Source: Planctomycetota bacterium (GTDB lineage: Bacteria > Planctomycetota > MHYJ01 > JACPRB01). Taken from it: a stretch of 27,102 nt of DNA. Where the stretch lies: assembly GCA_016190175.1 (NCBI GenBank), contig JACPRC010000012.1:1-27102 (forward strand), in the 5' to 3' direction. The notes beneath the pieces are model-generated. The model did no database searches. It was not told where the DNA came from and worked only from the letters and a program-made list of their open reading frames with translations. The position numbers and the translations under genes are program-made. Below, in pieces: positions 5,279-27,102 of the stretch (the first letter of the stretch is position 1; the number at the start of each line of letters is the position of its first letter).

Positions 5279-5311
5279 CACACCAAAAGTTGACAGGGAG
5301 CTTTTGGTGTG
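5279..5311 (+). repeat. Solo REP-like palindromic element: CACACCAAAAG-TTGACAGGGAG-CTTTTGGTGTG (11-bp stem, 11-nt loop).
   Basis: Perfect inverted-repeat arms read directly. Near-identical copy at 12097-12133 and a degenerate inverted copy at 11183-11215, both flanking the RAYT gene. Confidence 0.6.
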
Positions 5312-5361
5312 CAAGTCGCGAGGGTTATCTTCGGCTCCCCAATTCTGCTATAACCGCGCTC

Positions 5362-8300
5362 ATGGCCGACGCACCCGCCCCCGCGCCGCTCCGGCGCATC
5401 GGAGACATCGAACTTCTCCGCGAGGTCGGGCGCGGAGGCATGGGCGTCGTCTACGAGGGGCGGCAGGAGAAGCGGCGCGTCGCGGTCAAGGTCCTCCTCG
5501 GGGACGACTCCGATCCGGAAGCCGTCGTCCGGTTCCAGCGCGAGGCCTCCGCCGCGTCGATCCTCCAGCATCCGAACATCGTCCCCGTCACGCAATTTGG
5601 CCGGCACGAGGGGGTCTACTACTACGTGATGCCGTTCGTGGACGGCGAGTCGCTGGCGGCCCGCGTGCGGCGGCAGGGCGCCCTCGATCCGCGGGAGGCG
5701 GCCCGCTTCGCGCTGCAGGCCGCGCTCGCTCTCGACCACGCCCACCGGTTCGGCATCGTCCACCGCGACATCAAGCCCGCGAACCTGATGCTGGGCGAAC
5801 GGCTCATGGTCACCGACTTCGGCCTCGCGAAGGCGCTCGCTGCGCCGACGCTCACGGCCGCCGGCACCGTCGTGGGGACGCCCGCGTACATGAGCCCGGA
5901 GCAGGCGGCCGGCCTCAAGGTGGGGTCGCGGACGGACATCTACTCGCTCGGTGCCACCCTGTACGAAATGGCGACGGGGCGCGTGCCGTTCCAGGAGCGC
6001 GACGTCGCGCTGCTGCTCCGCCGGATCGAGGAGACCGATCCGCCGCTGCCCTCCACGATCCGCGCGGTCCCGCGGGACCTCGAGACGATCCTCCTGCGAG
6101 CGATGCAGAAGGACGCATCGCTCCGGTATCCGACGGCGGCGGAGATGGCGGAGGACCTCGGCCGGTTTCTCGCCGGACAGTCCATCCGCGCCCGGCGGAC
6201 GGGGTCGGTCCGGAAGCTCGCGCGCTGGGTCGGGCGCAGCCGGGCGCTTCCGGCCGCGGTCGTCCTGCTCTCGGCGCTCGTCGTCGCCGGCGTCTTCGCG
6301 CTCCGTTCGAAACGCGAGGTCGCGAAAGTCCGCACCGAGGGCCGCGAGAAGGAGGACGCAGCCCGCCGGGCGCAGGCGGAGCGCGCGTTCGCGGCGGCGG
6401 AGGTCCTCTTCGGCGAGAAGAAATGGGACGAGGCGCGCAAGCTCTACGAGGAAGTCGTGGCGCTGGGCACGCCCCTTGCGTTCGAGGCGAAAGCGGCGCT
6501 GGCCGAACTGGCGCTGGCGGCGGGGCGCCTCGACGACGCCCGCCGGTGGATCGAGACCCTGGGCCGGCCGCCGCTCCTCGCCGCGAAGCTGGCGCTGCGC
6601 GAGGGGGAGTGGCGCAGGGCGATCGAACTCGCGAAGAGCGTCCCGGACGAGCCGGACGCGTGGGACGTTCTCATCGAGGCGCACACGGCGCTCAAGGATC
6701 TCGACGCGGCGCGCGCGGCGCTGAAGGAGAAGGTGGAGCGGCAGCGCGCGAGGGCGCAGCTCCTTCTGCGCGAGGCGGACGCGGTCGTCGAGTCCGAACC
6801 CGGACGCGCGGAGCGTCTCTACCGGCGGGCGCTCGCCCTGTGCGATGCGGTCGGGATGGAGGCGCCGGCCGCGGCGGGACGCTGCGGGAGGCTCCTCTTC
6901 GCCCGCGGGCTCGGGCGCGAGGCGCTCCCCTACCTCGACCGTGACCCGGCGCAGTCGTACTGGAGCGTCCGCGTCCGCGTGGATCTGGGCTTGTGGCACG
7001 ACGCGCACGCGCGCTTCCGCCCGCGCGACCTCGACCGCGAGTCGGCGGAGACGGGACTGCAGATCGGCCTGGCGATGCTCGACCCGACCCTGGTCCGGGC
7101 GTGCCTCCCGCACGTCGCCGACCCGCGCCTCCGCTCGCTGGCGACCGGCGAGTCCGAAGATCCCGTGCTCCGGGCGCTGGTGAGCTCGCGGGCGGGCGAT
7201 TGGGAGCGGGCCCTGCCCCATGCGACCGACCCGACCGTGCGAGGCACGCTTCTCTTCCGCCTGGAGCGGACCGTCGAGGCCGCGCGCGAGTTCGAGAAGT
7301 CGCGCGACCCGCTGGGACGCATCGCCTGCGCGTACGAGCTGCGAGGCGCCCGCGCGGCGCGCGAGCTTGCGGAAGGCGCGCCGGGGGGCGATGCCGTCCG
7401 CGTCGCGCGCGTCCTGCTGCTCCTGCTGGAGGACCGGACGAAGGAGGCGCTCGAGGTGCTGATGGCCCTCTTCGAGGAGCAGCCCCCGATCCCGGCCGTG
7501 GCCCTGCTCGTCTTCCGGCTCCAGGACGTGATCCTGCGGATGCCCAAGGAGCCTCTCGACCGGCTTACGCGCAAGTTCGAGAACATCTTCCTCCGAAGGT
7601 TTCTCTCGGGCGACCGGCGCGAGTTCGAACGCATCCTCTGGCCGCAGCTCAATCTCGGGTTCCGGATGCTCGTGCCGATGATGCGCGACCTGGCGCCGTA
7701 CCGCATGTGGCAAGCCGATCAGGACTGGTACGTCGGGAACTCCCCCTCCGAGACGTCGATCCTGGCTCTCCTCGAGGACGCCGCCGGCGGCGCGCCGCAG
7801 ATCCGCGAGCTGGCGGAACAGCGCCTCCGAGCCCTGGATCCGGCGGCGATCCTCGTCCTGGAGCAGATCGCCGTTCGGAAGGGCCATCCGCGCGCGGAGG
7901 CCGCGCGCCGCTGGGCGGAAGTCCTGGCGGAACGGAGACGGCAGGAGCAGCGGATGAGACTCGGCAGCTTCGTGCGGCTGTACTCATACCACAAGGTGGT
8001 GACCTCGCTGTTCGGGGACGAGCTTTCCCTGAAGGATTGCCTGCTCAAACTGACCTTGTTCCGGGAGGCCGCGGGGGACCTCAAGGCACCGGAAGCCACG
8101 GCCGTGCTGGAGACGTACGCCCGGGACGAGAATCTCTCCGTCGCCATCACGGCGCTGCAGGGACTGTACGCGGTCGATCGCGCCGCCTTTCTCCGACATC
8201 TGGGAAGCAGGGCGGGCCTGCTCGCCGCCGCCCTGGTGGACACGGTCTCGTTGAGAGAGCCGCTCGAATCCGCGCTGAAGACCGCTCCGGAAGAACTGCG

Positions 8301-11145
8301 ACCGCTGGCGGTCGTGCTCCTCGCGTCGATCGGCACCCGCGCGGAGACCTCCTCAGCCTGGAGCCGCGCGCTTGCGGACGCCCTGCTGGGCGGCACGGCG
8401 CCGTCCGCCTCCGATCCCGATCCCGTCGTGCGCGCGATGTGCGCCCTCGTCTTCGGGATGCGCGACGACCCCGGGCCGCTGATGACGCTCCTGGACGATC
8501 CGGATCCGCGGGTCGTCGAGGCGGCGCTCCTGGCGCTCCTGAGGGAGGATCCCGCGGATCCTCTGGAAACGGTGCCGTGCCCCTCCACGTGGGCCTATTT
8601 CCTGCTGGCGGCGAAGGCGGAGAAGAAACCGCCCGCGATCGCCCGGCTGCCCGCGTCGGAGCATGGCCGCATCGAAGCGGCCCTCCGCACGATCGCCGGG
8701 AAGACGCGGGCCGCGACGTCCCATCGGCTGGTGCTGGGACTCATGACGCGGGTGCCCATCGGCGTCGATCTCCTCCGCGGCGTGCTCCTGCGTTCTTTTC
8801 CCTCGTCGGGCGCGATCCGCGAGGGATTCGACCGCCAGGCTGCGCTCCAGCCGCGGGCGGAACTGGAGTCGCTTCTTCGGGAACTCGTGCAGACGGCGCC
8901 CCGCGAAGTCCGCCCGCGCTATTTCGAGGTCGCCTCGCAGAAGTCCCTCCTGACTGCGGACGATCTTCTCGGACAGATGGAATCCGACCTTCCCAAGATC
9001 CGGCTGGCGACACGCGACCTTCTCGTCCCGCTCCCCGACGCGCGCGCTGCGGCGCTCCTGGACCACGAGGATCTGCACGTCCGGCGGAACGCGGCTTGCC
9101 TCTTCGTTCTGTGGCACCTCGCCAGGACGCCGGGGTTCGGCTCCCTCTTCGCGCCGGCCACCTCGCCCCGTCGCTGCCAGACGCTGGCGTGGGCGCTGGC
9201 CCGGTTCGCCCTCGCCCCTTTCCACAAGAGGCGCGAGACGCCGGCGCTTTGGGGGGGGGAGATGATCAACGTGGAGATGATCAACTGGGAGGAGTTCGCA
9301 CCGTTCCGGGTCTCGGGAAAACTGCGCGTCAAGTCGCCCGAGGATGCGATCAAGCTGCTGCGCCTTGCGGTCGACCTCGATCCGTCCGACTCGAGCCTCC
9401 GGTACCACCTGGGATCGATGCTGGCGAGTCGAAGGTCCCACGCGGAGGCGATTGAGGCCCTTCTTGCGGCGGTCGAGAAACTCCCGCCGGAGTACGAGCA
9501 GATGCGCGCCGAGGCGTGCGAGAAGCTGGGGGAGGAGTATCTTGCGTCGAAGGACCCGGAGAACGCCATTCTCTGGCTTGAGCGATCGATGGCCTCCTTG
9601 CCCGAGCGGCCGGGTCCGCTCGCAAGGCTCGGAGAGGCGCTGATCCTCCGGGGGGAGTACGCGACCGCGGAGGCGAAGCTGACTCGTGCCCTCGACCTCG
9701 ACCCGCGGTCTGGAGAGGCGTACCTCATGCGAGGGCGCGCGCGGAAGAAACTGGGTCGTCTCGACGAGGCCGCCGTGGACTTGAGCAACGCGCTCGCCTA
9801 CGGAGGGAAGCCGACGGAGGAGGACAAGTCGGGGCTCGACTTCGACCGCGCGCTGCTGCCCTCGCTTCTGGAACGGATGCGCTGGGCGCGGACCGATGAC
9901 GAGCGCCTGAAGCTCGTCGGACACCTCAGACCGCTGATCGAGGGGGTCCCGTCTTCGGTCCGGGAGTGGCTCTCCTCAAGCAACTCCCTCCACCGCCGGA
10001 ACGCCGTCGCCGTGATCGCCGCAGTCTCGGACAGCCGCCGGGAGGAAGCGGACTGGGACGCGCTGGCCGCTGCGGCCGGCGATCCCGATCGGAGGGTGCG
10101 CCTGGCCGCCCTGTCGGCCTTGCGGGATGCGGAGGCGCGGCCGAGCGAGAGGGGAAGGTCGGACCTGCTGGCGGCCGCGCGGTCCGCCTTCCGTTCCGGG
10201 GATGAGGGACTTCGGGACGCGGCCCTGCCCGTCCTGGCCGCATGTCCGCTCGCGGAGGTCTGGGGCGAGCTTCTGGACTACATCGACCTGCCGCTACCCG
10301 TGATGGGCAGGGCGACGCAGCTCGCGAACCGCATGCGGGCTCTCGCCAGGTTCCTCAAGGAGGCGAAGCGGCTGCCCGCCGGGGCGGCGGAGCGGCTCCG
10401 TGCTTCGGCGGCGGTCGAAACGTGGGTCGTCCGTTTCGCGGCCGGCGAGCGCGGGGCGCGCTTCGTCGAGTCGCTCGTCGCGGCGCTGGTCGACGCCGAC
10501 CCGGCTCGGCGCGAGTACGCCGACGTCCTCGGCGCCGAATGGGACCCCGGGTTCGAGCAGGTTGCGGAAACTTGGATGGACCGTTCCGACCCCCACGCGG
10601 GCATCTACCTTGCCGGGTACGCGCCGGAGTTGTGGAAGAGGGCGGTCGATCGCCTGGCCGAGCTGGCCGTCCTGATCGACCATGCAATCGAGGCTCTCTT
10701 CCACCGTCGCGTCAGCGAGGGGGAGTCCTGTTGGCGCGGGCTTTCGGAGCCGCTGCTCGCGGTTCTGTGCCGTCTCCTGCCGGCGCGGACGGAGGCCGCA
10801 TGCGAGGTGGTCCGTCACTACGCGGCGCGGGCCGCGGGGCCGTCGCTTCGGACGATCGTGGGCGACGGGCGGGCGGCCGTCCGCGACCGGCTGGACGCGG
10901 CCGCGACGCTCGCCGAGATCGGCGAGGACGGGGGCGCGGAGTTCGTGGTCGAGGCGCTCCGGGGCCGGCTGGCGGGTGCAAGGGAGTACGCCGACCTCAA
11001 GCACGCGATCTGGCTCATCTGCCTCCGCGCGGCGGGGAAATCGGGGCGCAAGGAGTTCGTCCCCGTCCTGCGGGAATGCGCGGAGAAGTTCGAGGACAAT
11101 CACCTTCGCAAAGAGGCCGCCGCTGCGCTCCGCCAGTTGCAGTAG
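5362..11145 (+). CDS. Giant membrane Ser/Thr protein kinase, 1928 aa: N-terminal Hanks-type kinase, one TM helix, then about 1600 aa of HEAT/TPR repeats.
   Basis: Kinase motifs GRGGMGVVYEG, VAVK, HRDIKPANLML, DFGLA, GTPAYMSPE. TM segment LPAAVVLLSALVVAGVFAL. HEAT-like DPDPVVRAM..DDPDPRVVEAALLAL. TPR-like segment around 9300-9800. Start placed at ATG 5362 (MADAPAP...), downstream of the REP element. Confidence 0.8.
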   Translation: MADAPAPAPLRRIGDIELLREVGRGGMGVVYEGRQEKRRVAVKVLLGDDSDPEAVVRFQREASAASILQHPNIVPVTQFGRHEGVYYYVMPFVDGESLAARVRRQGALDPREAARFALQAALALDHAHRFGIVHRDIKPANLMLGERLMVTDFGLAKALAAPTLTAAGTVVGTPAYMSPEQAAGLKVGSRTDIYSLGATLYEMATGRVPFQERDVALLLRRIEETDPPLPSTIRAVPRDLETILLRAMQKDASLRYPTAAEMAEDLGRFLAGQSIRARRTGSVRKLARWVGRSRALPAAVVLLSALVVAGVFALRSKREVAKVRTEGREKEDAARRAQAERAFAAAEVLFGEKKWDEARKLYEEVVALGTPLAFEAKAALAELALAAGRLDDARRWIETLGRPPLLAAKLALREGEWRRAIELAKSVPDEPDAWDVLIEAHTALKDLDAARAALKEKVERQRARAQLLLREADAVVESEPGRAERLYRRALALCDAVGMEAPAAAGRCGRLLFARGLGREALPYLDRDPAQSYWSVRVRVDLGLWHDAHARFRPRDLDRESAETGLQIGLAMLDPTLVRACLPHVADPRLRSLATGESEDPVLRALVSSRAGDWERALPHATDPTVRGTLLFRLERTVEAAREFEKSRDPLGRIACAYELRGARAARELAEGAPGGDAVRVARVLLLLLEDRTKEALEVLMALFEEQPPIPAVALLVFRLQDVILRMPKEPLDRLTRKFENIFLRRFLSGDRREFERILWPQLNLGFRMLVPMMRDLAPYRMWQADQDWYVGNSPSETSILALLEDAAGGAPQIRELAEQRLRALDPAAILVLEQIAVRKGHPRAEAARRWAEVLAERRRQEQRMRLGSFVRLYSYHKVVTSLFGDELSLKDCLLKLTLFREAAGDLKAPEATAVLETYARDENLSVAITALQGLYAVDRAAFLRHLGSRAGLLAAALVDTVSLREPLESALKTAPEELRPLAVVLLASIGTRAETSSAWSRALADALLGGTAPSASDPDPVVRAMCALVFGMRDDPGPLMTLLDDPDPRVVEAALLALLREDPADPLETVPCPSTWAYFLLAAKAEKKPPAIARLPASEHGRIEAALRTIAGKTRAATSHRLVLGLMTRVPIGVDLLRGVLLRSFPSSGAIREGFDRQAALQPRAELESLLRELVQTAPREVRPRYFEVASQKSLLTADDLLGQMESDLPKIRLATRDLLVPLPDARAAALLDHEDLHVRRNAACLFVLWHLARTPGFGSLFAPATSPRRCQTLAWALARFALAPFHKRRETPALWGGEMINVEMINWEEFAPFRVSGKLRVKSPEDAIKLLRLAVDLDPSDSSLRYHLGSMLASRRSHAEAIEALLAAVEKLPPEYEQMRAEACEKLGEEYLASKDPENAILWLERSMASLPERPGPLARLGEALILRGEYATAEAKLTRALDLDPRSGEAYLMRGRARKKLGRLDEAAVDLSNALAYGGKPTEEDKSGLDFDRALLPSLLERMRWARTDDERLKLVGHLRPLIEGVPSSVREWLSSSNSLHRRNAVAVIAAVSDSRREEADWDALAAAAGDPDRRVRLAALSALRDAEARPSERGRSDLLAAARSAFRSGDEGLRDAALPVLAACPLAEVWGELLDYIDLPLPVMGRATQLANRMRALARFLKEAKRLPAGAAERLRASAAVETWVVRFAAGERGARFVESLVAALVDADPARREYADVLGAEWDPGFEQVAETWMDRSDPHAGIYLAGYAPELWKRAVDRLAELAVLIDHAIEALFHRRVSEGESCWRGLSEPLLAVLCRLLPARTEAACEVVRHYAARAAGPSLRTIVGDGRAAVRDRLDAAATLAEIGEDGGAEFVVEALRGRLAGAREYADLKHAIWLICLRAAGKSGRKEFVPVLRECAEKFEDNHLRKEAAAALRQLQ
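9251..9288 (+). repeat. G9 homopolymer (9251-9259) followed by a 15-bp tandem duplication (GAGATGATCAAC-GTG / GAGATGATCAAC-TGG), inside the kinase CDS.
   Basis: Direct reading. Encodes WGGEMINVEMINW. Confidence 0.5.
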
Positions 11146-17313: not shown

Positions 17314-18126
17314 TCACTTCCTCGCGAACAACTCCATTGCGTACGGGATCCACAGGTCCGCGTTCCGCCGGCCGGGCGCGAGGAGCTTCGGCGGCTTCTC
17401 CTCCGTGAACACGGTGTCCGGCGGGTTGTCGTTGATGCGCGTCCACGGGGCCTTGCCCGTCGCCGACGCGATCATCTGCAACGCGTGGCCGAACTTCTCC
17501 TTGTGGACGTGGTCGCGCTCGCTCTGGATGCGGAGATACGGGCAACGGAAGAGCGGCGCGAAGCGCACGGCCTCGCGCTCCTTCCACCACTCCTCGTCGG
17601 ACGTGCGGTGGCCGCCGAACGTGATGCGGCCCGGATGGTCGAAGACGCGGTCCCATACGGTAACCCAGAACCGGTCGCTCGGCCCCTCCCAGTCGATGTA
17701 GAACGCGACCTTCTCGTCCGGGTACCGGCCGAGCATCCCCGACGCCATCGCGATGCCGTAGGAGAGCGACACGATCCCGACGCGGTCGAGGTACTCCAGT
17801 TTCTTCGCGGCGCGGACGACGGCGAGAAGGCCGTCCTGGTGGATCTTGCCGTTGTAGTCCTCGGTGCCCCCGCTCTTCCCGCGCCCGTCGGGATCGAAGA
17901 TGACGAGGACCATCCCCTTCGACGTGACCTGGTCGGGGAGGGAAGGGGGCATCTGGGATCCGAACCCGATGCCCCCCGGGACGAGGATGACGGCGGGGTA
18001 TTTCCGTTGCGCGGAAGCGTCCTTGGGGGCGGAGACCCGGACCCAGAGCTTCGCCCCGCTTGCGGGATTCGTGACGTCGAGCTTCTCCTGAGCGAGAAGC
18101 GTCAGTGCGAGGGCAATCGTCTTCAT
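17314..18126 (-). CDS. Secreted alpha/beta-hydrolase-fold protein (dienelactone hydrolase / S9-like esterase).
   Basis: Signal peptide MKTIALALTLLAQE. Nucleophile elbow GIVSLSYG (GxSxG). Overall alpha/beta hydrolase pattern. Confidence 0.7.
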   Translation of the reverse strand: MKTIALALTLLAQEKLDVTNPASGAKLWVRVSAPKDASAQRKYPAVILVPGGIGFGSQMPPSLPDQVTSKGMVLVIFDPDGRGKSGGTEDYNGKIHQDGLLAVVRAAKKLEYLDRVGIVSLSYGIAMASGMLGRYPDEKVAFYIDWEGPSDRFWVTVWDRVFDHPGRITFGGHRTSDEEWWKEREAVRFAPLFRCPYLRIQSERDHVHKEKFGHALQMIASATGKAPWTRINDNPPDTVFTEEKPPKLLAPGRRNADLWIPYAMELFARK

Positions 18127-18190
18127 AAGGACGGAAGAACCTACCGGCCCGGCGGGTGCCGCGCCGGGAGAGAAAACACCCGGGCCCGGA

Positions 18191-18421
18191 TCGGGCCATC
18201 AAGAGCCATTGTCGGGCATGTCGCATTGGTTTTCGGGCATGCAAGAACGGACATCGGGCATACCAAATCGAATATCGGGCATACAAGAATGGATGTCGGG
18301 CAAGCCTGATCGTAAGTCGGGCATCATCCGATCAATATCGGGCATCATCGAATAATTATTGGGCATCATCCGATCAATGTCGGGCACTCATGAGCGCGCA
18401 TCGGGCATGAAAGAGCGACGC
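18191..18421. repeat. Phased array of 11 direct repeats with an exact 21-bp period. Each unit is the conserved octamer TCGGGCAT (ATGCCCGA on the minus strand) plus 13 variable nt. The segment is AT-enriched.
   Basis: Octamer starts at 18191, 18212, 18233, 18254, 18275, 18296, 18317, 18338, 18359, 18380 and 18401 (all spacings exactly 21). Variants are TCGGGCCA, TCGGGCAA, TTGGGCAT and TCGGGCAC. It lies between the kinase stop (18426) and the hydrolase start (18126). Confidence 0.85.
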
Positions 18422-18425
18422 GCGC

Positions 18426-20636
18426 CTACTGCCCGAACATCTCGCGGAGCCGCGGTCCCGCGTCCGGGTCCTCCAGGAGGGGCTGGAGGTACGAGTCCTT
18501 CATGGCGAACACCTTCGCCAGGACGAAGAAGGCGGGCGCGCGGTGGATGTACTTGAACCGAACCGGCGGTCCCGTCCCCTTCGTGAACAGGCCGTACTCG
18601 CCGGCGGCGGTCGCGTGCTTGATCGCGTTCTGGATGGAAGCCAGGACCGGGCGGCCCTGCTTCGCCGTCGCGCAGGCAAGATGGTACTCGGCGGGGTAGT
18701 AGTTCGTGAGCTGCGAGAACTTGCGTCCCGCCTGCTCCAGCCGGTTCTGGAGGAGATCGAGGACTCCCTGGAGATAGGTCCTCAGGTTGCTCCCAGGGAT
18801 GATCTGGACGATCGGCTCCGCCTCCCGGAACCGGCCCTGCTCGATGTGGCAGAGGGCGCGCAGGCACAGAACGGCCTCGTGCCCGCCCTTGGGGAGACGG
18901 GAGGCGGCATCGAGGATATTCTCGGCATCCTGCAGCCGGCCGTAGGTGAGGTGGGTCAGGGCGGCGATCGCCCCCATGACCGGGGTGGGGAAGTCCTCGA
19001 GGAGCTGCGGCATCTGGGACGCGTGATCGCCGTTCTTCCTGGCGTTGTAGGAGGCGATGGCCAGGAGGAGGCGGAACTCCGGAGCGGGGCCTTTGCCGCG
19101 CCGTTCCTCCTGCGGCGCCGCGACCTCGGTGTCCTTCTCGTCGAGGAGCTTGTTCACGGCGCCGGTGAAGGGCAGGTTGGAGAACTTGTCGAGCGCTTCG
19201 TGGACGGCGACGAACCGCGGGTCCTTGAGGAGACTCCGGAAGTCGATGCGATAGGGGCGGTCGACGAGCCGGAACGGTCCCGAGTTGGTCATGATGATGC
19301 CCAACTGGATCGCGCGGACCTCCCCTTCGGGTGCGCCCCGCCGCACCGCGTCCTCGAGGAGGCCGAGCGCCTCCTGATCGCGGCCCAGGAGGATCTCGGC
19401 GCGCGCGGCGACGTTGTGGCCCCAGATGTCCTTGGGGTTGCTCTCGATCGCGCGGCGCGCGAGGTCGCGGAGCCGGGCGACCTCCGCATCGCGCACGTTG
19501 AGCTCGCCGTTCAGCAAGGCGCGCCCGCCGCGCCTCCAGGGGTACGGTTCGAAGTTGCGGGGGGGCAGGTCTCCGTCGGCGGCCGGTTTCGGGATCGCGG
19601 GGAGCGGAAGGCCGACCCGGGCGGCCGGCAGACCGGGATCCGGCCTCACGGCAATGGCGATCGCGGCGCCGACCAGGACCAGCCCGGTTGCCGCCGCCGC
19701 GGGCATCCAGGTCCGGCGGACGATCCGCAGCACGGCCGACGGCGCGCGCGCGGAGACGTCCCCCCCGCCGAGCCACGAGCGAAGCTCCTTCGCCAGCGCG
19801 CCCGCGGAGGGATAGCGGTCCTCCTTCCGCTTCGCCATCGCCTTGAAGACGATCGCGGCGAGCTCCTTTGGAACCTCCTTGAGGGGCGGAGCGTCGAGGG
19901 CAAGGATCTGCTGCATCACGCCGAACGGGGTCGAGGCGCGGAACGGCAGCCGTCCCGAGAGCATCTCGTACATCAGGACGCCCAGGCTGTAGACGTCCGA
20001 CCGGGCGTCCACGTCGGCGGGCGACCCGTCCGCCTGCTCGGGCGACATGTAGTAGGGCGTCCCGATGACCGCGCCCGTGCGCGTCACGCGCTCGTCCTTG
20101 CCTATCGTGCGGGAGAGGCCGAAATCGACGAGCACCGGCCGCCCCTCCCCCGTGATGAGGATGTTGGACGGCTTGACGTCGCGATGGACGACGCCCTGGC
20201 GATGAGCGTGTTCGAGGGCCTCGGCGATCAGGACGAAACACTGCACCTTGCGGCGCGTCGGCGCGGCGGCGATGCTCGACAGCGGTTTGCCGCCGACGAG
20301 GTCCATCACCAGGAACGGCCGCCCATCGACGTCGCCGATCTCGTGGATCCGGACGATGCCCGGATGGGGCGCGCGCGACGGGGCGCGCGCCTCGCGGAGG
20401 AGCCGCTCGTAGTCCGTCTTGGAGAGCGAGGGCGGGAGGATCTTGAGGGCGACGTCGCGGTCGAGCGTGGGGTCGTGCGCCTTCCAGACCACGCCGACGC
20501 CGCCGCGGCCCAGCTCCTCGAGGAGGCGGAAGCGCCCGAACGAGGCCTGCTGCGGCACGGGCGCGGCCGGCTCCTCCTTCTCGAAGACGTTGCGGCACAG
20601 CCGGTCGAACACGGACTCGCGGGGCTTATCCGCCAT
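18426..20636 (-). CDS. Membrane Ser/Thr protein kinase: N-terminal Hanks kinase, a TM helix, and a C-terminal TPR-like helical domain.
   Basis: Motifs GRGGVGVVWKA, VALK, HRDVKPSNILI, DFGLS, GTPYYMSPE. TM segment LVLVGAAIAIAV. Its start overlaps the upstream sigma-factor stop by 11 nt. Confidence 0.85.
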   Translation of the reverse strand: MADKPRESVFDRLCRNVFEKEEPAAPVPQQASFGRFRLLEELGRGGVGVVWKAHDPTLDRDVALKILPPSLSKTDYERLLREARAPSRAPHPGIVRIHEIGDVDGRPFLVMDLVGGKPLSSIAAAPTRRKVQCFVLIAEALEHAHRQGVVHRDVKPSNILITGEGRPVLVDFGLSRTIGKDERVTRTGAVIGTPYYMSPEQADGSPADVDARSDVYSLGVLMYEMLSGRLPFRASTPFGVMQQILALDAPPLKEVPKELAAIVFKAMAKRKEDRYPSAGALAKELRSWLGGGDVSARAPSAVLRIVRRTWMPAAAATGLVLVGAAIAIAVRPDPGLPAARVGLPLPAIPKPAADGDLPPRNFEPYPWRRGGRALLNGELNVRDAEVARLRDLARRAIESNPKDIWGHNVAARAEILLGRDQEALGLLEDAVRRGAPEGEVRAIQLGIIMTNSGPFRLVDRPYRIDFRSLLKDPRFVAVHEALDKFSNLPFTGAVNKLLDEKDTEVAAPQEERRGKGPAPEFRLLLAIASYNARKNGDHASQMPQLLEDFPTPVMGAIAALTHLTYGRLQDAENILDAASRLPKGGHEAVLCLRALCHIEQGRFREAEPIVQIIPGSNLRTYLQGVLDLLQNRLEQAGRKFSQLTNYYPAEYHLACATAKQGRPVLASIQNAIKHATAAGEYGLFTKGTGPPVRFKYIHRAPAFFVLAKVFAMKDSYLQPLLEDPDAGPRLREMFGQ

Positions 20637-21375
20637 CCTTCTCCCCGCTGCCGAACAGGTACTGCATCTCGGCGTCGAGGTCCGACGGGTCGGTGACGGA
20701 CTGGAGCACGCGGTCGCGGAGGAAGCTGCGCAGGTCCGCGCGCACGCGGCGCAGCGCCCCGCGGACGGCGTCCTCGGTCACGCCGGACCGGTGCGAGAGG
20801 TCCGCGTACGAGGGCGGCGCCGGCGCGAGGTCGTACGCCTCGAAGATCTTGAAGACGTTCTCGCGTCCCGACTGCCGGTACTGGGTCCGCAGCGCCGCGA
20901 TCGCGTCCTGCATCAGCGCCTGCGCCCAGACGCGGTCGAAGGCGCGCTCGACGGACTCCGTCTTCGCCGGGAGCTGGAACAGGGGTTCCTCCGCCGCATC
21001 GATCGAGACGGGCCTCGACCCGCCGCCCCGCTTGATCCTCCCCTCGTCGCGTTTCTGGTTGAGCATGAAGTGCTCCAGCGCCGCGCGGACGAAGGAGCGG
21101 AAGCGCCCGCGGTCGGGCGAGACGGACTTGAGGAAGTCCTTCTCGAGGAACGTGGCGAAGAACTCCTGCGTGAGGTCCTTCGCGTCCTCGTTCCCGCGGT
21201 TCCACCGCAGGCGCACGAGCCAGTACACGGGCTTCCAGTAGTAGCGGCAGAGCTTCTCCAGGTTGGCCTGGGATTCCTTGTCACTCGCGTCGCGGGCGCC
21301 GAGGATGACGGTCCACAGGGTGGGCGGGAAGGCGCCGCCGGGGCCGCCGAGCTGGGTGACGGGGTCGACGTTCAT
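20626..21375 (-). CDS. ECF-type sigma-70 family sigma factor (the STK-associated type) with a C-terminal extension.
   Basis: Region-2-like LEKLCRYYWKPVYWLVRLRWNRGNEDAKDLTQEFF. Region-4 HTH-like SYADLSHRSGVTEDAVRGALRRVRADL. The ATG at 21375 overlaps the upstream stop (ATGA). Confidence 0.7.
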   Translation of the reverse strand: MNVDPVTQLGGPGGAFPPTLWTVILGARDASDKESQANLEKLCRYYWKPVYWLVRLRWNRGNEDAKDLTQEFFATFLEKDFLKSVSPDRGRFRSFVRAALEHFMLNQKRDEGRIKRGGGSRPVSIDAAEEPLFQLPAKTESVERAFDRVWAQALMQDAIAALRTQYRQSGRENVFKIFEAYDLAPAPPSYADLSHRSGVTEDAVRGALRRVRADLRSFLRDRVLQSVTDPSDLDAEMQYLFGSGEKDGG

Positions 21376-21998
21376 AGGTATCGCAGCAGCGCGCCGATCT
21401 CCTCGGGCATCTCCTCCGCGGTGCAGTACTCGCCGACGAGGCGCTCGATCTCCGCCTTCAGTTTCAACTTCGCGCGATGGACATGGTTGGTTACATCGCC
21501 CTCGCTGCGCCCGAGCGCGGCGGCGATCTCCTTGTAGGACTTCCCCCCGATCTGGAGCTCGAGGGCCGCGAAGTGGGGGTCGGGGCGCAGCCGTTCCATC
21601 GCGCGCCCGACGAGGTTCCGCACCCACAGCCGGTCGAACTCGGCGTCCGGGGGCGCCTCCGCGGGGAGATCGAAGTCGCCGAGCGCGACCTCGCGGCGCC
21701 GGTCGCGCGCGCCCGCGAGCGCGTGCCGGCGGTGCGAGGCGATCACGTGCCGCGTGACGGCGAGGAGGAGGTTGCGGAACCTCCCCTTGCTGCGGTCGGC
21801 CTTCCCCAGGAACTCCTCGCGGCAGACGCGGAGGAACACCTCCTGGGCGACGTCCTCGGCATCCTCGGGAGGGATCCCCTGCGCGCGCGCGAAGTCGACG
21901 ACGGGCTGCCGGTATCGGCGCACGACGAGGTCCTTGACGCGCTCGGGGTCGCTGCGGACCTGGAGGAGGCACGTCCACATCGTGGAGGGAAGCGGCAC
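21372..21998 (-). CDS. ECF-type sigma factor with a C-terminal extension. Start is the GTG at 21998 or the ATG at 21980.
   Basis: Region-2-like DFARAQGIPPEDAEDVAQEVFLRV. Region-4 SYKEIAAALGRSEGDVTNHVHRAKLKLK. TATACT lies 6 nt upstream of the GTG at 21998, so the transcript may be leaderless. Confidence 0.7.
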   Translation of the reverse strand: MPLPSTMWTCLLQVRSDPERVKDLVVRRYRQPVVDFARAQGIPPEDAEDVAQEVFLRVCREEFLGKADRSKGRFRNLLLAVTRHVIASHRRHALAGARDRRREVALGDFDLPAEAPPDAEFDRLWVRNLVGRAMERLRPDPHFAALELQIGGKSYKEIAAALGRSEGDVTNHVHRAKLKLKAEIERLVGEYCTAEEMPEEIGALLRYL

Positions 21999-22248
21999 GG
22001 CAATAGTATAACTCGCCCGCGGCGGGGGGCGTAGCGAGGAAATGGGGCCGTGGCGGGGAGCGCGGCGAACGGGCGCCTACTCGATCCGCGTCGCGCCCAG
22101 CACGTCGCGCGCCCGGACGATCATTCGCAGGACGCGGGCGAGGTCGGGGTCCTCGATTCTCTCGACCGGCCCGTAGAGCGTCTCCGCGCGCGCAAGCGCC
22201 GCCGAGATCAGGTGTTGGAGGATTTTCTACGCGCCCGCTTCGTTTCGA

Positions 22249-22277
22249 TTGACCCCCGCCGAACCCCGCGATAGATT
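22249..22277 (+). promoter_or_regulatory. Candidate sigma70-like promoter TTGACC-N17-TAGATT upstream of the MVP-like gene.
   Basis: Direct reading. The -10 ends about 28 nt before the ATG at 22306. GGAGG lies 8 nt upstream of that ATG. Confidence 0.3.
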
Positions 22278-22305
22278 GCCTCCCGCCCATATGGGAGGAA
22301 GAGAC

Positions 22306-24471
22306 ATGCCACAGGAGCGCGAGCTGCGGGAACGCGACATCCTCGTCGCGTCGAACGAGTACGCCTACGTCCAGGATCTCACGAAGGGCGACATCGTCCT
22401 CTACGTGGGGCCGACGAAGATCAGCCTCTCCAACACGGAACGGCTCGTCGAGTTCCGCAACGGCCGCTTCGTCCCCGTGCGCGGCGAAGAGGGCGGGCTC
22501 GGCGTCAACCCGTTCGTCGTCGCGTCGTCGGCGCAGTACATCATCCTCGAGAACCCGCCGAAGGACCCGAACGTCCGGACGGTGAAGGGCAACAACTCGG
22601 CGATCGAGCTCCTCATCGGCAAGAAGTTCGTCGTCTCCGGCCCCGCCACGTTCCCGCTCTGGCCCGGCCAGAAGGCGCAGGTGATCGACGGCCACGAGTT
22701 GCGCGAGGACCAGTACCTCGTGATCCGCGTGTACGACCGGGTCGAGGGAGAGAACGATCCCATCGGGACGCAGCGGATCGTGAAGGGCTCCGAGGTCAGC
22801 TTCTACATTCCGAAGACCGGGCTCGAGGTCGTGCCCGACGAGAAGGGCTACGTGCGCAGCGCGGTGACGCTCCTTGAGGGCGAGTACTGCATCCTCCTGG
22901 CGCCGAACGGCCAGACGCGGTTCGTGCGCGGGCCCGCGGTGGTCTTCCCGGGCCCGATGGAGGAGTTCGTCCGCAAAGGCGGGACGAAGATCTTCAAGGC
23001 CGTGCCGCAGCGGAAGAACATGGGACTCCGCGTGCGCGTGCTGAAGGACTTCACGGCCGCGGACTCGCAGCAGGTGCCCGCGGGGAAGTACACCGCGGGG
23101 CAGGAGATCTTCCTCAAGGACCGCGAGGGCTTCTTCTTCCCGAGCGAGTCGCTCGAGGTGACGGCGGAGGTGCAGGCGATCCCGATCGCGGAGAAGGAGG
23201 GGATCTACGTCCGCAACCTCGAGACGGGCAAGGTCGCGACCGAGATCGGGCCGAAGAACACCCTCGCCGATCCCACGAAGACGGAGATCGTCTCGCGCGC
23301 GCTCGACCCGGAGATCGAGAAGCTCTACGGCGTCACGGGTCGGGACAAGGGCAAGGCGGTCTCGATCTACATCCCGCCGAGCTACGCCGTGATGGTGACG
23401 GGGAAGAACAAGCGCGAGGTCGTGATCGGCCCCGCGACGCGCATCCTCGACTTCGACGAGGACCTGGAGATCCTCAAGCTCTCGACCGGGAAGCCGAAGA
23501 CGGACGAGACGCTCCTCTCGACCTGCTTCCTCCAGATCACGGGGAACAAGGTTTCCGACATCGTGCGCGTCAAGACCGCGGACCACGTGGAGCTGGAGGT
23601 GACGGCCTCCTACCGCGTGACGTTCGTCGCGCAGGACGCGCGCGAGCGCGAGAAGTGGTTCAACGTGAAGAACTACGTCGGGCTCCTGTGCGACCACCTC
23701 GGTTCGATCGTGCGCGCGGCGGTGCAGGCGACGCCGATCGAATCGTTCCACACGCGCAGCGCCGAGGTCGTGCGCGCGGCGATCCTCGGCGAGAAGAAGG
23801 GCGAGGAGAAGCGCGTCGGGCGCCACTTCGCCGAGAACGCGATGTCGGTCTACGACGTCGAGGTGCTCGACGTGAAGATCCTGGACCAGGACGTCAAGAA
23901 GCTCCTCTCGGACGCGCAGCGCAGCGCGATCGTCTCGGAGGTGCAGAAGAAGCAGGAGAACCTCCGCCTGAGCAACGAGTCGGTCAAGCAGGAAGTGGAC
24001 CGCAGGATCTACGAGGCGCAGATGACCACGATCGCGAAGGCGATCGATCTCGAAGGGGTCAAGCGGAACCTGTCGGAGGCGCGCGTCCGAGAGGCGGTCG
24101 AGCTGGACAAGCTGGAGAAGGTGGGGAAGGCGCAGAACCAGGCGCAGGCGCTCGACGTGTCGAGCACGGCGGCCGCCGCGGCCGCGGAGCGCGAGGCGCA
24201 AGTGGAGATCAAGAGCCTGAGCGCGAAGGTGGGGGCGTTCAAGGAGCAGATGTCGGCGCTGCAGCCGGAGCTCGTCACGACGCTCAAGGTGCTCGGCGAC
24301 CAGGAGATGAGCAAGGAGCTGACGCGGAACCTCTCGCCGCTGGCGATCCTGGGCGGGCAGAGCGTGGCGGAGGTGGCGGAGCGGCTCCTGAAGGCGCTTC
24401 CCGTCGGGATCGTGCTCAAGAACGGCGCGGCGGAGCCGGTGACGAAGGCGAGGAAGAAGACGGCGGAGTAA
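22306..24471 (+). CDS. Major vault protein (MVP) homolog, 721 aa: vault repeat domains, a shoulder-like region and a C-terminal coiled-coil cap-helix.
   Basis: Aligned against remembered human MVP. RIPPYHYIHVLD versus [21 protein letters not shown] versus [21 protein letters not shown] versus [34 protein letters not shown] versus [38 protein letters not shown] versus [18 protein letters not shown]. The last roughly 180 aa are predicted coiled coil. Confidence 0.8.
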   Translation: [721 protein letters not shown]

Positions 24472-25013: not shown

Positions 25014-25421
25014 TCAAGCGAACGGATTGAGGGTCTTCACGCGGGCCTTCTTGAAGTCGCGCACGTTCCGCGTGACTACGGTGAGGCCATGCGTCGCCGC
25101 AGTGGCGGCGATCAGACTGTCCTTGATCGGCATGGACCGGCCGGAAGCCCGAAGGTCCGCGAGGAGTTTCGCCCAGCAAAGACCCGTGCCCGCGTCCCAC
25201 GGGAGGCAGGCGAATCGGGCTACGCCGTCCTGGAACCAGCGTTCCAGCGCGCGACGGCGCCTGCCGGCGGGCAGCAGAAGGATGCCGAACCGGATCTCGC
25301 CCAGGATGATGGGGTCGACGACGATCTCGCGTTCGTTCCGCCGCAGCCACTCCACGACACGAGCATCGGGTGCGGGCTTGGTGGCCTCGCTGAGGACGTT
25401 CGCATCGACGAGGTACGTCAC
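25014..25421 (-). CDS. vapC: PIN-domain toxin VapC (GTG start overlapping the vapB stop: GTGA).
   Basis: TYLVDANVLSE (PIN N-terminal Asp). Conserved acidic residues further on (EIVVDPIILGE, DSLIAATA). About 135 aa. Position and 4-nt overlap with the antitoxin gene fit a vapBC pair. Confidence 0.7.
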   Translation of the reverse strand: MTYLVDANVLSEATKPAPDARVVEWLRRNEREIVVDPIILGEIRFGILLLPAGRRRRALERWFQDGVARFACLPWDAGTGLCWAKLLADLRASGRSMPIKDSLIAATAATHGLTVVTRNVRDFKKARVKTLNPFA

Positions 25422-25648
25422 AGCGAATCCGTCGATTCCGATTCGACGGGGACGAAGAAGTTCCTCTCGGGGCAGGCCAACAGCCAGTCCACCAGCCCTT
25501 GGTTCGGCCTGGGCTTGCGTCGGACCAGGCGGTATTCGCCTCGGGCGAGGCGTTCGATCGCGAACTCCTGACCGGGCACGATGCCGTCCCGCTTTCGGAG
25601 CCCGGCAGGAAGCACGATCTGGCCCTTCGTGGAAACCGTCGTCGTCAT
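25418..25648 (-). CDS. vapB: AbrB/SpoVT-type antitoxin VapB.
   Basis: MTTTVSTKGQIVLPAGLRKRDGI is a swapped-hairpin (SpoVT/AbrB) motif. 76 aa. Lies directly upstream of the PIN gene. Confidence 0.7.
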   Translation of the reverse strand: MTTTVSTKGQIVLPAGLRKRDGIVPGQEFAIERLARGEYRLVRRKPRPNQGLVDWLLACPERNFFVPVESESTDSL

Positions 25649-25653
25649 GGAAC

Positions 25654-25670
25654 GTAAGATAGCATCTTAC
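25654..25670. promoter_or_regulatory. Perfect palindrome GTAAGAT-AGC-ATCTTAC immediately upstream of vapB. Candidate autoregulatory operator.
   Basis: Direct reading. 7-bp arms with a 3-bp spacer, 5 nt from the vapB ATG. Confidence 0.4.
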
Positions 25671-25867
25671 CTCCTCGCGGTCAACGAGCGCGCGCCGGGC
25701 CGGCGATCGATCCCGCAGGCGCGTTCTCGCCCCGGCGGCCTCGCCCCACCGCGCCTGAACGAGATGTCCAGGGGACACTCCGTCGTCTCCGTCGCCGCCG
25801 GTGAGTCGGCGGTCGCGTTGCGGCGGATCGTCCGACGATCGCTGAAGGATCACGGGTCGAGGATTCA

Positions 25868-26290
25868 ATGCGTGGCCAAGCCACGCCATGGTATAGTGGC
25901 GGCAAGGGGATCATCGCCAAGAGAGTGTCCCTGTTCGGGAGCCGGGGGAAGAAGACCGTCTTCGCGCTCTTCGACAGCGGCGCCTCGAAGTCGCTCATCC
26001 GAAGAGATCTCGCGCGAGATCTGGGCCCGCTCGTCGAGCTTCCCGAGCCCGAGCGGTTCGAGATGGTGCGGGGGAGATTCATCGTCCGCGACGGGTGCGT
26101 AGCAAGCGTGGGGCTCGGGCGCGCCAAGCCGGCTCATCTCTTCCGCGCCGTCGAGAGACTGAGCGAAGATCTCATCGTAGGGGCCGACTTCCTCCAGCAG
26201 TGGGACGTGCGGCTGGAGCCGCGGCGCAAGAAGATCGTCCTGGATCCGCGTGCGTTGCGGCTCAAGGCCGTCGGTCACCGCCCGCAGTAA
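25868..26290 (+). CDS. Retropepsin-like (clan AA) aspartic protease domain protein.
   Basis: ALFDSGAS (D-S/T-G-A active site). GADFL near the C-terminus. At about 140 aa it has the size of bacterial retropepsin-like proteins. Confidence 0.55.
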   Translation: MRGQATPWYSGGKGIIAKRVSLFGSRGKKTVFALFDSGASKSLIRRDLARDLGPLVELPEPERFEMVRGRFIVRDGCVASVGLGRAKPAHLFRAVERLSEDLIVGADFLQQWDVRLEPRRKKIVLDPRALRLKAVGHRPQ

Positions 26291-26497: not shown

Positions 26498-26532
26498 GTT
26501 AGGCAGCGGAGTCATGTAAGGAACATCGACCC

Positions 26533-27102
26533 ATGGCTCCGACCAGCCTCCGCGGCTACGTGGTGCAGGAAGAAGTGAAGGAAGGGTCGATCGGGACCGT
26601 CTATCGCGTCACCGACTCCCGGAACCGCACGCTCGCCCTCAAGCAGATATCGGCCGGGAACGCCGTTCAGCCGCGAAAGCGCAGGGAGTTCCGCAAGGAG
26701 TACGAGATCCAGAAGCGCCTCGACCATCCTGCGATCGTCAAGGTGTTCGACTACGTGGAGATGGCCCCGCAGGATTTCTTCACGATGGAGTACTTCGAGA
26801 GCGAGAGCCTCAAGGTCACGATGTTCCACCTCCCGGAGCGCATCCGCAAGCGCGAGTTCCGGCTCCTGCGCCGGCTCGCGGAGGCGCTCGAACACGTCCA
26901 CTCGAAGGGGATCATCCACAAGGACATCAAGCCCGAGAACGTCCTCGTCGACGCCAAGGGCGACATCCGTCTGATCGACTTCTCCCTCGGCCAGACGAGG
27001 TGGGACCGGTGGCTCCAGTTCGGAAAACGCGTCGAGGGGACGCCGCTCTACATGGCGCCCGAGCAGATCCGCGGCGGGCGCTGCGACGAGCGCACCGACA
27101 TC
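26533..27102 (+). CDS. Ser/Thr protein kinase, 3'-truncated by the window end.
   Basis: GSIGTVYRV, ALKQI, HKDIKPENVLV, DFSLG, GTPLYMAPE. The reading frame is open to the last base. Confidence 0.8.
   Translation, partial: MAPTSLRGYVVQEEVKEGSIGTVYRVTDSRNRTLALKQISAGNAVQPRKRREFRKEYEIQKRLDHPAIVKVFDYVEMAPQDFFTMEYFESESLKVTMFHLPERIRKREFRLLRRLAEALEHVHSKGIIHKDIKPENVLVDAKGDIRLIDFSLGQTRWDRWLQFGKRVEGTPLYMAPEQIRGGRCDERTDI

Follow-up and report, generated by a model that had tools for sequence, protein, structure and literature searches.

Can a single receptor kinase control two sigma factors? The question, for which a tandem operon is a natural case, arises from three reverse-strand genes, two encoding ECF sigma factors and one a Hanks-type Ser/Thr kinase. 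All three lie in the window analyzed here, the 27,102 nucleotides at positions 1-27,102 of contig JACPRC010000012.1 (assembly GCA_016190175.1), and were compared with relatives designated by locus number (L081, L087, L172 etc.).

Gene layout and probable promoter of the operon

Sigma-1 (21,372-21,998, reverse strand) encodes a 208-aa ECF sigma factor from a GTG at 21,998 that, as read from the sequence, is the earliest start possible after an in-frame stop upstream. Sigma-2 (20,626-21,375, reverse strand) encodes a divergent ECF sigma factor of 249 aa and the kinase gene (18,426-20,636, reverse strand) a receptor kinase of 736 aa, each from an ATG. Coordinates and the pairwise overlaps of the three genes, as given in a preliminary description of the locus, were all verified on the sequence. 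The sigma-2 ATG sits on the sigma-1 TGA in a start/stop ATGA (21,372-21,375, reverse strand) of the kind associated with translational coupling, and the kinase ATG lies inside the end of sigma-2 in an 11-nt overlap (ATGGCGGATAA; 20,626-20,636, reverse strand). Judged by comparison, these overlaps are not chance, because orthologous loci L081, L087 and L172 keep an 8-nt sigma-2/kinase overlap and the sigma-1/sigma-2 junction stays tight, abutting in L087 and overlapping by 4 nt in L172. A terminator-like GC hairpin followed by a T-run (18,178-18,197, reverse strand) is the probable end of the operon. An Rfam scan of the window returned zero matches.

The sigma-1 GTG is preceded, at a spacing of 6 nt, by a -10-like hexamer, TATACT (22,005-22,010, reverse strand). 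The window, L087 and L172 all keep the arrangement TATACT-N6-GTG amid diverged flanks, and this conservation in three tandem loci strengthens the earlier suggestion that the first sigma gene may be leaderless. Locus L088 has GATAAT-N6-GTG, and L081, which has no sigma-1, carries the same element (GTTATACTAATGCC) upstream of its sigma-2 orthologue. Over 79 family loci, TAnnnT hexamers showed roughly five-fold enrichment in the interval 5-11 nt ahead of the start codon. The spacing is that expected for a leaderless transcript, whose -10 would end some 6-7 nt ahead of its start codon. A sigma-70 promoter scan detected no -35/-10 pair where sigma-1 begins and no convincing -35 with TATACT. Sigma-1 holds no -10-like hexamer suitably spaced from the sigma-2 ATG to act as an internal sigma-2 promoter. 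TATACT is probably the promoter of a leaderless sigma-1/sigma-2/kinase transcript, and it looks housekeeping-type rather than like an autoregulated ECF promoter. Comparative evidence suggests that such operons tend to be leaderless with housekeeping-type promoters. A housekeeping-type -10 and a leaderless mRNA would imply constitutive synthesis with control exerted on the protein, a pattern suited to such control rather than to autoregulation.

Sigma-2 and its receptor kinase

As a single sequence, sigma-2 scores below domain cutoffs (19 bits for Pfam region 2; 39.9 bits for TIGR02937 against a cutoff of 42.9). At the family level, TIGR02937 is matched by 35 of 35 members at E <= 0.01 (best 6.7e-18), and the family profile matches Mycobacterium tuberculosis SigE over regions 2-4. 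The best PDB matches listed for its AlphaFold model (pLDDT 82) are sigma factors, ECF sigmas first. Both sigma-2 and sigma-1 consist of sigma2 and sigma4 domains only, without region 1.1 or region 3, as expected of ECF (group 4) proteins. Family profile and predicted structure indicate that sigma-2 is a true ECF sigma despite its weak Pfam and NCBIfam scores. The alternatives of a PhyR-like sigma mimic or an anti-sigma factor were set aside, since sigma-2 retains the HTH and the core-binding traits that mark genuine sigmas. Its distinguishing motifs are an N-terminal T-x-x-G-G...F-P-x-T-x-W, EDAKDLTQEFF in region 2.2 and KRGGG in the linker; across the family, region 2.2 shows 100% conservation of the second Asp and 96% of Lys66.

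The kinase is, as first described, a transmembrane protein, and its outer domain is TPR-like. A cytoplasmic kinase domain (aa 37-278; Pkinase, 144 bits) is followed by a single transmembrane helix (aa 310-331), which leads to the TPR-like domain outside the cytoplasm; this domain is helical throughout, and its TPR matches are borderline (TPR_19, 25.5 bits; cutoff 25). All hallmarks of Hanks-type kinases (G-loop, VAIK Lys, HRD, DFG and APE) are present, as GRGGVG at 43, VALK at 62, HRDVKPSN at 151, DFG at 171 and SPE at 198, and judging by these motifs the enzyme is apparently catalytically competent. Its nearest solved relatives are PknB (E 1e-47), PknA and PknE. The L081 orthologue aligns with 475 bits over the kinase domain and 322 bits over the sensor domain.

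Sigma-2 has 2244 homologues. Its family comprises at least 594 confirmed loci in species-representative genomes, 80 of which, from several phyla, were examined. A kinase lies directly downstream on the same strand (domain start within 700 nt; median distance 36 nt) at 62 of the 75 loci having enough downstream sequence, and at several of the remaining loci a kinase is encoded farther away within the same locus; in L083-86, the kinase's place is taken by a 442-aa protein for which a Pfam scan gave nothing. The sigma-kinase order, with its start/stop overlap, is kept across at least five phyla, and the module occurs in Planctomycetota, Acidobacteriota, Verrucomicrobiota, Myxococcota and others. 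Among the neighboring genes scanned against Pfam, none encodes an anti-sigma domain, which bears out the proposed unit of ECF sigma and membrane Ser/Thr kinase without an adjoining anti-sigma gene. With a kinase downstream at 62 of 75 loci, the sigma-2 family is therefore, by gene context, a sigma/Ser/Thr kinase module lacking an anti-sigma, of the type seen in ECF43 and in the kinase-linked groups of planctomycetes. This extends a known theme and overturns no current view.

Sigma-1 and the origin of the tandem arrangement

Sigma-1 scores above the Pfam cutoffs (Sigma70_r2, 33.8 bits; r4_2, 39.4 bits), matches TIGR02937 with 57.4 bits and has an AlphaFold model with a pLDDT of 81. Its region 2.2 (EDAEDVAQEVF) is canonical, with the acidic DAED kept, and its linker carries a basic RDRRR patch. 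More than 120 homologues, nearly all of 208 aa, share 55-77% identity. The two sigmas of the window are 27% identical (E 6e-16), and this distance, together with their membership of two separate conserved families, rules out a recent gene duplication; the "duplicated sigma" of the preliminary description is thus a pair of distinct proteins.

The order sigma-sigma-kinase was found only in the window and in two close metagenomic relatives, L087 and L172, and an adjacent upstream sigma was present at 0 of 80 sigma-2 family loci from other genomes. A metagenome scan for sigma-1 relatives used generic back-translated patterns, and true orthologues made up 3 of its 80 loci. Locus L081 has the orthologous sigma-2/kinase pair and keeps downstream synteny with the window, but has no sigma-1. 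In the tree it branches from within the tandem loci, so this close relative has apparently lost sigma-1 and the tandem unit is dispensable. On these comparisons, the juxtaposition of the two sigmas is of shallow age and specific to one lineage, a small planctomycete clade. The view of the locus as an unusual signaling unit holds in that two sigmas upstream of one kinase are rare; only the extra upstream sigma is unusual, the sigma-kinase pair itself being widespread and already recognized. The divergent MVP gene, which the preliminary description had also proposed for a promoter search, is not a conserved neighbor: upstream genes differ in L081, L087 and L172, and a functional link was rejected. 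Pfam scans of neighbor genes gave nothing for a 251-aa gene in L081 or a 370-aa gene in L172.

Is sigma-1, then, a client of the kinase or a passenger that landed between the promoter and the sigma-2/kinase module, conserved, constitutively active, otherwise orphan and co-transcribed with a kinase that acts on sigma-2 alone? The passenger reading is possible, though we consider it the less probable of the two. Its EDAEDVAQE is fully canonical, the family alignment holds no conserved Ser/Thr in the linker, and orthologues stand as orphans in L088, L090 and L092/93. The window kinase is moreover orthologous to that of L081, where sigma-1 seems to have been lost again and the kinase's partner is sigma-2 alone. 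Against this, members of the sigma-1 family lie directly upstream of kinases of their own in L174/L175 (4-nt overlap), L173 and L094, a linkage that is occasional in this family. The tight sigma-1/sigma-2 junction, abutting or overlapping by 4 nt, is also maintained in three loci whose proteins have diverged to 72-77% identity. Proximity to the kinase is itself weak evidence for a sigma-1 link, because kinases are abundant in this genome, three of them within these 27 kb.

We favor, with some confidence, a model built on a two-gene core, sigma-2 and a cognate single-pass receptor kinase, that would have been inherited as a unit across phyla. With its TPR-like domain, the kinase would detect a signal from outside the cytoplasm and then activate sigma-2 at the protein level, most probably by phosphorylating it directly and with no anti-sigma factor involved. 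In a small planctomycete clade, represented by the window and its two metagenomic relatives, a second ECF sigma would have been placed between the promoter and sigma-2. This sigma belongs to a different family, one that is strongly conserved and in certain genomes is coupled to kinases too. The outcome would be one operon of stop/start-coupled genes, transcribed constitutively from the housekeeping-type TATACT into an mRNA on which sigma-1 is leaderless, and both sigmas would plausibly answer to the one kinase.

Region 2.2 and the putative phospho-switch

Direct phosphorylation of ECF sigmas has precedents in EcfP, modified by PknT, and EcfK, modified by PknS, and kinase-linked groups include ECF43, ECF59-62, ECF217, ECF267 and ECF283 (PMC8999054, PMC13147305, PMC7826278). 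The window unit resembles EcfP-PknT of Vibrio parahaemolyticus, EcfK-PknS of Xanthomonas citri and ECF43 generally in having a Hanks kinase at +1 with one transmembrane helix, an extracytoplasmic TPR domain and no anti-sigma factor, but has two sigmas before the kinase where ECF43 has one. To our knowledge, mechanistic work on kinase-linked ECF groups is confined to ECF43, whose model requires that the acidic motif of region 2.2 be lost. There, DAED is replaced by uncharged Ser/Thr residues (STTA, QTTA) and phospho-Thr supplies the missing charge, whereas the window sigmas retain an acidic DxxD motif, DAED in sigma-1 and DAKD in sigma-2. Because both keep this motif, the EcfP phospho-switch signature is absent, and both could therefore bind core RNA polymerase unphosphorylated. 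The resemblance to phosphorylation-controlled groups claimed in the preliminary description lies in kinase linkage and lack of an adjoining anti-sigma gene, and does not extend to the region 2.2 signature of ECF43. The sigma-2 family is much larger than ECF43, is kinase-coupled and keeps most of the acidic motif, so if it is phospho-regulated, its switch must differ from that of ECF43.

We infer that sigma-2 is phosphorylated and that the kinase may also control sigma-1. Candidate phosphosites in sigma-2 are T69, near-invariant in region 2.2 beside the family-specific Lys66, T19 and T7 in the N-terminal motif, and Ser/Thr residues of the linker. The switch may consist of phospho-T69 offsetting Lys66, or of phosphorylation of the disordered N-terminal motif. 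The C-terminal extensions noted earlier do exist, as one helix past region 4.2 in each sigma (residues 197-205 of sigma-1 and 230-241 of sigma-2), but nothing marks them as phosphosites; they are single helices of 20-25 aa, conserved throughout both families, and the phosphosites established by experiment in ECFs under kinase control fall within region 2.2 and the linker joining sigma2 to sigma4, away from the C terminus (PMC13147305, PMC8999054).

It is improbable that the kinase acts on neither sigma and is merely co-expressed with them (for instance, with a sigma driving kinase expression), having other substrates while the sigmas answer to transcriptional control or to an unlinked anti-sigma: the acidic residues that both sigmas keep in region 2.2 and the very many kinases of planctomycete genomes, with substrates unknown (PMC11032199) and three in this window, would allow it, but the conservation of sigma-kinase order and start/stop overlap in at least five phyla, the direct sigma phosphorylation by which ECF43 works (PMC13147305, PMC8999054) and the seemingly housekeeping-type, not autoregulated, promoter all speak against it. 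That one receptor kinase gates two ECF sigmas and, jointly, that the sigma-2 family uses a switch unlike the charge restoration of ECF43 is a tentative and rather doubtful proposition. If true, two ECF sigmas would be made stoichiometrically from one leaderless operon, giving a branched phospho-switch with one sensor and two regulons.

Neither window sigma matches PF07638 (Sigma70_ECF) at E <= 0.01, and TIGR02999 is not among the sigma-2 matches nor among the best 25 of 51 for sigma-1. Relatives of sigma-2 match both weakly (PF07638 in 21 of 35, TIGR02999 in 10 of 35). Because of this weak similarity and the KRGGG linker, which may resemble the ECF43 linker motif, the comparison suggests that the sigma-2 family is distantly related to ECF43. 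In ECF59, ECF60 (original), ECF61, ECF62 and ECF217, a kinase usually occupies +1, in many cases with a single transmembrane helix and TPR, and an anti-sigma is lacking; the reported descriptions give them no conserved autoregulatory promoter motif, and their mechanism is uncharacterized (10.1101/2019.12.11.873521, supplement). Compared by context features only, the window unit is compatible with these groups (same phylum, kinase at +1, TPR, no anti-sigma), but they are described as 100% Planctomycetes whereas the sigma-2 family spans several phyla. A text search of that supplement turned up no tandem ECF pair for ECF59-62 or ECF217.

Two ECFs in one neighborhood also occur in ECF12s22 (tandem sigmas, no evident anti-sigma) and ECF280 (second ECF at -3/-4). 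Unlike the window pair, these have no kinase link and form no stop/start-coupled operon with a kinase. Sequence past region 4.2, as in the window sigmas, is likewise known from ECF41 and ECF42, whose C-terminal extensions are domains of about 100-200 aa (SnoaL-like, TPR); the window tails differ in comprising one short helix each.

Organization of the sigma/kinase operon

The window is a whole 27,102-bp contig from a metagenome-assembled genome labelled 'Planctomycetes bacterium', to which both sigma proteins match at 100%. The operon comprises three minus-strand genes arranged head to tail, encoding the ECF sigma factors sigma-1 (21372-21998, GTG start, 208 aa) and sigma-2 (20626-21375, 249 aa) and a Hanks-type Ser/Thr kinase (18426-20636, 736 aa). 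The sigma-2 ATG lies on the sigma-1 TGA in an ATGA overlap and the kinase ATG sits 11 nt within sigma-2 (ATGGCGGATAA). These coordinates and overlaps, reported in a preliminary description of the region, were exact when checked against the sequence. A terminator-like hairpin downstream of the kinase (18178-18197) probably closes the operon.

Sigma-1 exceeded the Pfam cutoffs for Sigma70_r2 and r4_2 and scored 57 bits with TIGR02937, and its sequence assigns it unambiguously to the ECF sigma factors. Sigma-2 scored weakly against library models (19 bits with Sigma70_r2; 39.9 bits with TIGR02937, cutoff 42.9). Nonetheless, the sigma-2 family profile aligned with M. tuberculosis SigE over regions 2 to 4, an AlphaFold model (pLDDT 82, pTM 0.71) displayed sigma2 and sigma4 helical bundles separated by a disordered linker, and the best PDB matches among those listed for this model were sigma factors, ECF members first (SigE, AlgU, sigma-E, SigH, SigL). 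Thus, sigma-2 is a real ECF sigma factor despite its weak scores. Consistent with its earlier designation as a membrane Ser/Thr kinase with TPR repeats, the kinase contains every Hanks-type catalytic motif, a single hydrophobic segment (residues 310-331), and a helical C-terminal domain of ~400 aa where TPR matches are borderline; its closest solved relatives are PknB, PknA and PknE. No anti-sigma domain was found in neighbouring genes scanned against Pfam. Hanks-type kinases without an adjacent sigma gene are also encoded on the plus strand at 5290-11145 (a 1951-aa giant with TPR and HEAT repeats) and at 26503-27102, where the gene is cut by the contig end.

Distribution of the sigma families and the tandem layout

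The view of the pair as a duplicated sigma does not hold: sigma-1 and sigma-2 are only 27% identical over their whole length (E 6e-16) and represent two distinct conserved families. Judged by sequence, they are distant paralogues, with an N-terminal P-x-[ST]-x-W motif, G[RK]FR, a basic linker patch and a short C-terminal helix in common. The sigma-1 family (>120 matches, 55-77% identity) consists almost entirely of proteins of exactly 208 aa with a canonical EDAEDVAQEVF motif and RDRRR in the linker. Sigma-2 relatives (2244 matches in the search) are proteins of ~245 aa with near-invariant YWKPVY, [E/D][D/E]AKDLTQxFF and KRGGG motifs. Scanning of species-representative genomes yielded at least 594 confirmed sigma-2-family loci. 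Among the 80 kept for study, Planctomycetota, Acidobacteriota (Bryobacterales and others), Verrucomicrobiota, Myxococcota and further phyla are represented, and a single genome often holds many paralogues.

A same-strand kinase domain started within 700 nt downstream (median distance 36 nt) in 62 of the 75 sigma-2-family loci with at least 1.2 kb of downstream sequence, and several of the remainder had a kinase elsewhere in the locus. Therefore, the sigma-2/kinase pair is a conserved module. In two verrucomicrobial loci (L036, L042), one complete sigma-2-type/kinase pair follows another on the same strand, a different route to two sigma-2-family sigmas in one neighbourhood. In a clade whose sigma-2 orthologue is 63% identical (L083 8673-10744; also L084-L086), this sigma gene has no kinase; the gene upstream of it, joined by stop/start coupling, encodes a 442-aa protein that matches nothing in Pfam and may serve as an alternative regulator.

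Placement of two sigmas upstream of one kinase is indeed unusual. None of the 80 loci had a second sigma directly upstream of the sigma-2-type gene, and outside the window the three-gene layout was found only in L087 (sigma-1 77% identical, sigma genes abutting) and L172 (75% identical, 4-nt overlap), in both of which the kinase gene begins 8 nt before sigma-2 ends. Of the relatives on long contigs, L081 is the closest (sigma-2 78% identical); its kinase is orthologous and the genes that follow are those of the window, among them one for Peptidase_M28, and it is without sigma-1 and the major vault protein (MVP) homologue. In a neighbour-joining tree of sigma-2 orthologues (no bootstrap), L081 nested among sigma-1-bearing loci and the outgroups L176 and L177 were without sigma-1, a pattern that suggests sigma-1 was gained once, then lost in L081. 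Sigma-1 orthologues also lie directly upstream of their own kinase in L173, the more distant L094, and L174/L175 (1102-aa TPR kinase, 4-nt overlap), and are orphans in L088, L090 and L092/93. The L088 orthologue (10001-10627, 63% identity) is divergent from a complete contractile-injection-system-like cluster (L088 1-9934, minus strand; sheath, tube, baseplate, Pvc16_N) that may hint at the sigma-1 family regulon in that organism. Most likely, the operon represents a conserved sigma-2/receptor-kinase phospho-signalling module that, in a small clade of planctomycetes, acquired a further ECF sigma distantly related to sigma-2.

Comparison with kinase-linked ECF groups

Documented kinase-linked ECF groups without an anti-sigma factor are ECF43, ECF59-62, ECF217, ECF267 and ECF283 (PMC7826278 and supplement). 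The mechanistic model derives from EcfP/PknT and EcfK/PknS of ECF43, where S/T replaces the region 2.2 DAED and phospho-Thr restores the negative charge for beta-prime binding; in EcfK, the sigma2-sigma4 linker is a site of phosphorylation as well (PMC8999054, PMC13147305). Like the window kinase, ECF43 kinases have one TM helix, with extracytoplasmic TPR repeats. However, region 2.2 reads DAED in sigma-1 and DAKD in sigma-2, with no S/T replacement in either. Therefore, the unit resembles ECF43-type modules in layout and is not an ECF43 member. Within the sigma-2 family the second Asp of region 2.2 is invariant, and Lys66 (96%) and Thr69 (98%) are highly conserved. The window sigma-2 did not match PF07638 or TIGR02999, to which a fraction of its relatives match weakly. 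In the reclassification supplement, a term search turned up tandem or second ECFs only for groups without a kinase link.

The preliminary description, confirmed in its observations and supported in part in its interpretation, had drawn attention to C-terminal extensions as possible phosphorylation targets. Sequence past region 4.2 is present in both sigmas, but as a single 20-25-residue helix, conserved within both families and unlike the regulatory domains of ECF41/ECF42, and none of our findings marks a phosphosite in either helix. Conserved Ser/Thr residues of sigma-2 elsewhere, namely T7 (86%) and T19 (99%), within or next to an N-terminal segment modelled largely at low confidence, and T69 of region 2.2, are candidate phosphosites. 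We infer that the kinase probably phosphorylates sigma-2 and may also control sigma-1.

Promoter elements and other features of the window

Six nucleotides separate TATACT from the sigma-1 GTG downstream of it, and TATACT-N6-GTG is kept in all three tandem loci (window, L087, L172) despite diverged flanks. This conservation favours the proposal of a leaderless sigma-1, although no -35 element was found for the hexamer. L088 has GATAAT-N6-GTG; the element of the tandem loci is preserved in L081 (GTTATACTAATGCC), where it lies ~47 nt upstream of the sigma-2 ATG; and L176 and L177 have TATAAT 8 and 15 nt before this codon. A survey of 79 sigma-2-family loci showed TAnnnT hexamers concentrated 5-11 nt ahead of the predicted start (34 in these 7 offsets versus 27 in the next 28). 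Given this conservation and clustering, operons of the sigma-2 family seem commonly leaderless or nearly so, with a housekeeping-type -10 element, a pattern compatible with constitutive synthesis and control after translation.

Downstream of the kinase stop and before the next gene (18191-18408, minus strand), a 21-nt unit with a conserved core, ATGCCCGA, is repeated ~10-11 times at exact 21-nt phasing. Exact copies of the core number 7 in the array and 8 in the whole window versus 1.3 expected, and 0 of 100 shuffles reached 8. The array, followed immediately by a terminator-like hairpin, would lie in the operon 3' UTR or form a phased binding array upstream of a 270-aa gene (17314-18126). It had no Rfam match and was absent from syntenic L081 and from all 175 loci compared. 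Divergent from sigma-1 is a bacterial homologue of eukaryotic MVP (22249-24471, plus strand; Pfam MVP_shoulder E 1.4e-31, also Vault_3 and Vault_4), a 740-aa ORF whose internal ATG may be the true start and whose position beside the sigma operon is not conserved in relatives. A probable toxin-antitoxin-type nuclease is encoded by a minus-strand ORF at 25014-25889, in which Pfam places a PIN domain at the C terminus (E 4.5e-12).
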